Part shown: one piece after another, positions 20,263 through 23,703 of the stretch
Numbering within the stretch: position 1 is the stretch's first letter
How the letters are laid out: each line of letters opens with the position of its first letter
Assembly (NCBI RefSeq): GCF_003334355.1
Contig: NZ_QOWP01000018.1
DNA length: 64,000 nt
Direction: 5' to 3' (one strand)
Source: Escherichia coli
GTDB lineage: Bacteria; Pseudomonadota; Gammaproteobacteria; Enterobacterales; Enterobacteriaceae
The notes under the pieces: model-generated
Database searches by the model: none
What the model was told of the DNA's origin: nothing
Seen by the model: only the letters and a program-made list of their open reading frames with translations
Program-made: the position numbers and the translations under genes

Positions 20263-20354
20263 TGCAAAATCCTGCTATTTGATTTGTATGAGTGATAAGT
20301 GTAACGCCGAATAATCGTCGTTGGCGAATTTTACGACTCTGACAGGAGGTGGCA

Positions 20355-21143
20355 ATGCTGGTTGCCGCAGGACAGTTTGCTGTTACATCTGTGTGGGAAA
20401 AGAACGCTGAGATTTGTGCCTCGTTGATGGCGCAGGCGGCGGAAAACGACGTATCGCTGTTTGTCCTGCCGGAAGCATTGCTGGCGCGCGATGATCATGA
20501 TGCAGATCTATCGGTTAAATCAGCACAGCTGCTGGAAGGCGAATTCCTCGGACGTTTACGGCGAGAAAGTAAACGTAACATGATGACGACAATTCTGACG
20601 ATTCATGTTCCTTCAACGCCGGGGCGCGCATGGAATATGCTGGTGGCACTTCAGGCAGGAAACATCGTCGCCCGTTATGCCAAACTGCATCTCTATGATG
20701 CATTTGCCATTCAGGAATCACGCCGTGTTGATGCTGGTAATGAAATCGCTCCGTTACTGGAGGTGGAAGGGATGAAGGTCGGTCTGATGACCTGTTATGA
20801 CTTACGCTTTCCAGAGCTGGCGCTGGCACAGGCATTACAGGGAGCTGAAATCCTGGTACTTCCTGCCGCCTGGGTTCGCGGGCCGCTCAAAGAGCATCAC
20901 TGGTCAACGTTGCTTGCCGCTCGTGCGCTGGATACCACCTGTTATATGGTGACGGCGGGGGAGTGCGGGAACAAAAATATCGGTCAAAGCCGGATTATAG
21001 ATCCCTTTGGCGTCACCATTGCGGCAGCGTCAGAAATGCCTGCACTCATTATGGCGGAAGTGACGCCCGAACGTGTGCGTCAGGTGCGCGCGCAACTGCC
21101 CGTCTTAAACAACCGTCGCTTTGCGCCGCCGCAATTATTATGA
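20355..21143 (+). CDS. ybeM: Carbon-nitrogen hydrolase (nitrilase-superfamily) protein
   Basis: 262-codon frame from the ATG at 20355 with AGGAGG Shine-Dalgarno at 20344-20349; C-N hydrolase fold, positional equivalent of K-12 ybeM. Confidence 0.8.
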
Positions 21144-22749: not shown

Positions 22750-23703
22750 TCAAAATGCATTACGGATAACATCTATTACTCCGTGCAGGATGGGATCACG
22801 CAGGCTGAATTTGTTGTAGTGGATAGAGAAATCTATTTGCTCCTCATTTAAGGACGGAAAAGGCAGTTTTTCCAGCGGCCAGCAGCGGCTAAACAGGTTA
22901 TAAAAACGGCTGGGAATAATCGCTAACATGTCACTGTTGGCAACCAGTGCAGCGATTGTCAAAATGTTGTAGCTGGTGAAATTGATTTACCGGTCCGGAA
23001 ACATTTCTTGAACTCTCTGCCGCAGACCGCTGAAATTTTGCTCTTCCGGTAACAGAAGTACATGCGCAGCGTTGTCGATAGTCTCTCTGTCATCTTCTAA
23101 AGAGAGTAGTGGATTTCCCTCGCGGCAAATTAACACCATATTGTCGGTGAACAGAACATGATGTTGCACCGTACGATTGGTGCAAAACATGTTATCGATG
23201 ATGAGATCGGTTTGAAACTGACTGAGTTGGTTTTCCGCGTCGCTGATGGGCGGGTTGCGCAGTAAAAGCTGCGGATAGTGAGTTTTAATCGCCCGATAGA
23301 TGACAGGAAGGACCAGTGCTCCGACCGAGGGAGTGGTCGCAATAGTTATCGTTCGTTGCTTATCATAGCTTCCTTCGATATCCAGCGCGCCAAGAATGGA
23401 CTCAAGGCCCTGACTGATATACTCATGTAGATGCATCGCAAATGCGGTAGGAGTGACACCCTGGCCTTTGCGAATAAACAATGGGTCAGGGAATATAACG
23501 CGCAGTTTCTGAATAGACTGACTGATTGCCGAGGGGGTCAGATTAAGCACTTTCGCTGCATTAACGATCCCTTTATGTACATATACAGCTTCAAAAATAG
23601 TCAGAAGGTTAAGATCAATATTTCGTAAGGTTGTAAATATTTGTGGTTTACCTTCTGACGACTTTCTGCTTAAACAGGGTTCAATTTGATTATTACTATC
23701 CAC
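22750..23703 (-). pseudogene. ybeF: LysR-family transcriptional regulator YbeF, interrupted by an in-frame TAA stop
   Basis: ORFs 22987..23703 (HTH domain) and 22750..22962 (C-terminal effector domain) are in the same frame, separated only by a TAA at 22987-22989 (plus-strand tta); the continuous frame is 317 codons, the length I recall for K-12 YbeF. Confidence 0.6.

Follow-up and report, generated by a model that had tools for sequence, protein, structure and literature searches.

We analysed a window of 64,000 nucleotides from Escherichia coli (assembly GCF_003334355.1, contig NZ_QOWP01000018.1), the whole of which is meant by "the window" below, and which carries on its plus strand the gene ybeM. 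The gene lies between crcB, which is divergent from it across a 92-nt spacer, and tatE, beyond which stands lipA; the same crcB and tatE flanks are found in K-12, PSS-12, strain B and wild isolates, so that ybeM occupies its expected E. coli position. An earlier note, made from the sequence of the window, had described ybeM as an uninterrupted frame of 262 codons with a strong Shine-Dalgarno sequence, and both points hold: the list of open reading frames and the raw sequence agree that there is no internal stop, and the ribosome-binding site is the full consensus, five bases 5' of the ATG (Table 1). An in-frame GTG at 20349, two codons 5' of the ATG, is where the listed open reading frame begins; the RefSeq annotation of the identical ybeM sequence in strain PSS-12 (WP_087899359.1, "deaminated glutathione amidase") starts at the ATG and not at the upstream GTG.

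Judged by its distribution, ybeM is a conserved gene and no chance reading frame: all but one of the complete E. coli genomes (5,425 of 5,426) carry the locus, and it has orthologues of 262 residues across the Enterobacteriaceae. A promoter scan gave no sigma-70-like site on the plus strand 5' of ybeM, and the scan for promoters and terminators returned nothing exceeding the shuffled expectation. In a search of Rfam (E <= 1) neither the crcB-ybeM spacer nor ybeM itself held a fluoride riboswitch or other structured RNA, the only matches of that scan being the cspE leader and weak terminator-like matches.

Table 1. Positions in the window of ybeM, its ribosome-binding site and the codons discussed in the text.
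Feature	Position	Strand	Remarks
ybeM coding sequence	20355..21143	+	789 nt; ATG at 20355, TGA at 21141-21143, 262 codons before TGA; deaminated glutathione amidase by homology, Nit1 branch, nitrilase superfamily
Shine-Dalgarno AGGAGG	20344..20349	+	direct sequence reading
Glu40 codon, catalytic (LPEA motif)	20472..20474	+	aligned to LPE motif of NitFhit and yeast Nit2; invariant in 16-sequence alignment
Arg67 codon (CGT)	20553..20555	+	middle base G20554 absent from K-12 and ~16% of complete E. coli genomes (alignments, counts)
Lys110 codon, catalytic (YAKLHLYD motif)	20682..20684	+	aligned to catalytic position of 1EMS and 4H5U; invariant in 16-sequence alignment
Glu121 codon, second active-site Glu (QES motif)	20715..20717	+	aligned to MES motif of NitFhit; invariant in 16-sequence alignment
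Cys147 codon, catalytic nucleophile (TCYDLRFPE motif)	20793..20795	+	aligned to Cys of 1EMS and 4H5U; invariant in 16-sequence alignment
Codon 200	20952..20954	+	ACG (Thr) here, GCG (Ala) in nearly every other E. coli; G20952A, A200T, rare missense

Family membership and active site

The protein belongs to the nitrilase superfamily, matching Pfam PF00795 (CN_hydrolase) with E = 3.2e-40 over residues 3-245 and model positions 2-255 of 256. Within the superfamily it belongs to NCBIfam NF033621 (de_GSH_amidase, E. coli type; model type "exception"), against which residues 3-261 score 449.7 bits over profile positions 2-260 of 260, the curated cut-off being 355 bits. It falls outside the neighbouring families: the Yersinia-type deaminated glutathione amidase model NF043013 gives 80.5 bits and the true nitrilase model NF040852 gives 62.4 bits, each against a cut-off of 500, the YafV-type amidohydrolase model NF007757 gives 58.3 bits against 249, and the N-carbamoylputrescine amidase and aliphatic amidase models leave it far under their cut-offs. 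Its best relatives among solved structures are NitFhit (1EMS, with the Caenorhabditis elegans Nit domain; 1.1e-28), yeast Nit2 (4H5U; 1.3e-26) and mouse Nit2 (2W1V).

The database name may nonetheless over-interpret this Nit1 homology, if YbeM is an active amidase that in E. coli cells works on something other than deaminated glutathione, perhaps a different omega-amide or a compound related to nitric oxide. The "exception" type of NF033621, the low score against the Yersinia-type model and the modest identity of YbeM to eukaryotic Nit1-type proteins would speak for such a substrate, and in the literature ybeM is among the loci bound by NsrR in ChIP and has lowered expression in CFT073 stressed with nitric oxide (PMC5320621), a hint that its role in the cell may lie elsewhere. 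We consider this distinctly unlikely, since the score against the E. coli-type model for deaminated glutathione amidase lies well over its cut-off, the best solved relatives are of the Nit1 branch and not Nit2/omega-amidases, nitrilases or aliphatic amidases, and the YafV-type and nitrilase models both fail.

The catalytic triad of the superfamily is complete in the window's YbeM (Glu40, Lys110 and Cys147), and a second glutamate, Glu121, stands with it; a second glutamate of this type is the fourth catalytic residue of the nitrilase superfamily. Cys147 aligns with the engineered serine of 4HGD, at the position where 4H5U and 4HGD differ by Cys-to-Ser. All four residues are invariant in an alignment of 16 enterobacterial sequences (the window and 15 others), and the orthologues from E. 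fergusonii, Citrobacter, Salmonella, Leclercia, Kosakonia, Enterobacter and Scandinavium keep a constant length of 262 residues at 71-84% identity.

The one-base deletion of K-12 and its frequency

The earlier note held, with some hesitation, that ybeM is annotated as interrupted in K-12, and this is right: the gene is pseudogene b4581 in NC_000913.3 (658031-658818, 788 nt), and a second MG1655 assembly flags it as "frameshifted." Aligned to the window, the K-12 gene is neither intact nor equal in length, missing one G in codon 67, while the window keeps the catalytic cysteine. The K-12 product would run for 66 native and 9 missense residues before a stop, 75 residues that retain Glu40 and lack both Lys110 and Cys147. 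K-12 ybeM also carries two further T-to-C changes, V33A and V37A (window positions 20452 and 20464), which are absent from the three wild frameshift carriers that we compared and are consistent with drift following inactivation. The K-12 gene is treated as a pseudogene and serves as a neutral site for marker insertion (PMC7242477; PMC6207328). Out-of-frame ybeM fragments have been reported to cause filamentation.

Counted as exact matches to a 60-mer with the K-12 deletion at its centre, the lesion is present in 860 of ~5,424 complete E. coli genomes (~16%), and ~84% are without it. The intact 61-mer of the window matches 3,626 records exactly; the remaining records carry base substitutions, and the rows sampled among these are of undeleted length. 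Of ten exact deletion matches sampled across the ranking, eight are human, pig or environmental isolates. In the three carriers that we opened, 300709 (stool, Mozambique), JP538 (pig, Japan) and DETEC-P80 (hospital swab, China), ybeM is annotated "frameshifted" and differs from that of the window only by the missing G and at position 20952.

These counts bear on whether the K-12 difference is an error in the reference, or a mutation acquired in the laboratory, instead of a natural polymorphism. One-base deletions are typical of sequencing errors, and we found nothing else in favour of this explanation; the missing G lies outside any homopolymer run (context GGAC[G]TTTAC), and the identical deletion recurs in 860 independently assembled records whose carriers include the stool, pig and hospital isolates from three countries. 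The records and the three wild isolates refute the explanation, whose probability we regard as negligible.

From these counts and the constant 262-residue length of the orthologues we conclude that the intact gene is the majority and ancestral state in E. coli. The window allele is in essence the haplotype, still intact, that was parent to the frameshifted one. Deletion of a single G in codon 67 would have cost K-12, and with it a large natural clade of relatives, the enzyme; the window strain sits on the same haplotype as the frameshift, without the deletion. The proposal that this strain retains a potentially functional amidase that the reference has lost is thus upheld by the frame and the catalytic residues, with activity as a prediction. 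Retention is unremarkable, because most E. coli have the gene intact, as their ancestor did, and the K-12 pseudogene is well documented; an intact ybeM is common and already known.

Loss of ybeM in a large E. coli clade has been without obvious harm. The frameshift is a natural polymorphism and no peculiarity of K-12, apparently fixed in a sizeable wild clade (~16% of complete genomes). A stronger claim would be that loss of the repair enzyme is neutral or even advantageous in that clade; we think this unlikely. If it is true, the window strain, with the same haplotype and the G present, would be a near-isogenic natural comparator for the repair of deaminated glutathione in bacteria.

Other shortened versions of ybeM occur in the protein database, among them those of P0042 (215 aa), P0050 (214 aa) and P0057 (205 aa). 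In the P0042 allele, which comes from draft assemblies (GCA_020556205.1, L009 445-745), short runs near codons 16 and 51 have each gained one base; another shortened version has a frameshift in an AAAAA run at codons 207-208. These may be further independent disruptions of the gene or homopolymer errors of assembly.

A rare substitution at codon 200 and the surrounding window

The threonine at residue 200 is rare, the exact 61-mer that carries A200T occurring in 1 of 5,424 complete genomes, that of strain PSS-12. Because this independent isolate has it too, the substitution was passed on by descent and did not arise as an error of sequencing. Residue 200 lies four residues past the conserved Cys196-Tyr197 and is alanine in 14 of the 15 other aligned enterobacterial sequences. 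Both the rarity of the variant and the prevalence of alanine would suit an enzyme that is impaired or altered in spite of its intact frame, A200T disturbing the strand after Cys196-Tyr197 near the active-site region and leaving the strain functionally closer to K-12 than its frame suggests. We hold this to be very improbable: a change from alanine to threonine is conservative, the aligned residue is alanine in NitFhit but methionine in the Nit1-type yeast Nit2, indicating that the family tolerates variation there, and the catalytic residues are all untouched. To judge from the alignment, A200T is probably tolerated.

PSS-12 differs from the window by 11 substitutions over 64 kb and by the length of a tRNA cluster. 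That cluster (51682-52163, minus strand) has five genes in the window (Gln-CUG, Met, Gln-UUG, Leu, Met) and seven in K-12 and PSS-12, which have two Gln-CUG and two Gln-UUG genes; the window lacks ~221 nt relative to PSS-12 at this cluster, the outcome to be expected if duplicated tRNA-Gln genes recombined. Among the substitutions of the window is a premature stop in ybeF, a neighbouring LysR-type regulator gene (22750-23703, minus strand; 317 residues in K-12). The G that K-12 and PSS-12 share at position 22989 is replaced by A, turning the minus-strand CAG codon of Gln239 into TAG, so that only 238 residues would be translated. Among the 5,426 complete genomes of E. coli, PSS-12 included, none has the exact 61-mer with this stop, and the nonsense mutation is either private to the window strain or a sequencing error.

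Larger differences from K-12 are found elsewhere in the window. At 37827-37864 the K-12 segment 675,501-683,475 (~8 kb), which holds ybeQ, ybeR, djlB, ybeT, ybeU, djlC and hscC, is missing, and rihA comes immediately after ybeL, as in PSS-12. Between gltI and lnt a segment of 2.4 kb (42241-44600) is unalignable to K-12, which has IS5D there; the PSS-12 equivalent carries a gene for a rhomboid-family intramembrane serine protease, at about 42591-44468 of the window. At the left edge (1-131), the first ~120-130 bases are unaligned to K-12; PSS-12 has here the last part of an IS1A copy inserted beside dsbG, so that the window begins within an IS1 copy. At this site K-12 has citR, and ybdN is truncated in PSS-12.

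Proposed function and comparison with relatives

We suggest, with a probability of about 0.9, that ybeM in the window is the intact ancestral allele and encodes a cytoplasmic amidase of the Nit1 branch, 262 residues long and by homology a deaminated glutathione amidase. Transaminases occasionally replace the amino group on the glutamyl moiety of glutathione by a keto group, giving damaged (deaminated) glutathione, and YbeM would then hydrolyse the amide to 2-oxoglutarate and cysteinylglycine, which would be salvaged. The thiol of Cys147 is the predicted nucleophile on the amide carbonyl, with Glu40 as the probable general base and with Lys110 and Glu121 likely to stabilise the tetrahedral and thioester intermediates; a nucleophilic cysteine, glutamate as general base and stabilisation by lysine and glutamate are established features of catalysis in the nitrilase superfamily. 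E. coli YbeM itself has reportedly been assayed on deaminated glutathione by Peracchi et al. 2017, and we infer from the conserved family and active site that the protein of the window would be expressed and active on this compound. Nit1, which hydrolyses deaminated glutathione, is conserved in many bacteria, and its substrate is a by-product of transaminase side reactions from which 2-oxoglutarate and cysteinylglycine are recovered (review PMC7041631).

The finding itself matters little. Standard annotation already lists ybeM as a pseudogene in K-12 and gives the intact gene its assigned function. K-12 is unrepresentative for ybeM, and work on the repair of glutathione damage in E. coli is better done in strains with an intact gene (B/BL21 and most wild isolates). 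The population figure, ~16% of complete genomes with the K-12 lesion and wild isolates among them, is a small useful addition.

The closest of the named relatives is YbeM of E. coli B/BL21 (WP_000959109.1, annotated as deaminated glutathione amidase), which is identical at 261 of 262 residues and shares the length, the crcB and tatE neighbours and the catalytic residues; it has Ala200 where the window has Thr200, and the two genes differ at seven nucleotides in total. K-12 b4581 occupies the same locus in the same haplotype family, with 99.6% nucleotide identity to the window gene, but is without G20554, carries V33A and V37A, and has alanine at 200 against threonine in the window. At a greater distance, the Nit1-type amidases (mammalian Nit1, yeast Nit2 YJL126W 4H5U and NitFhit 1EMS) fall in the same branch by best matches (E = 1e-28 to 1e-26) and share with YbeM the Glu-Lys-Glu-Cys active site and the proposed reaction on deaminated glutathione. 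Their sequence similarity to YbeM is only moderate, and YbeM is the more compact, with 262 residues against 341 in yeast Nit2, having neither the insertions of the yeast protein nor a Fhit fusion. E. coli YafV (NF007757), an omega-amidase of the Nit2 type, shares the CN_hydrolase fold family and the genome with YbeM, and is a paralogue but a different enzyme, as the low score of YbeM against its model indicates.
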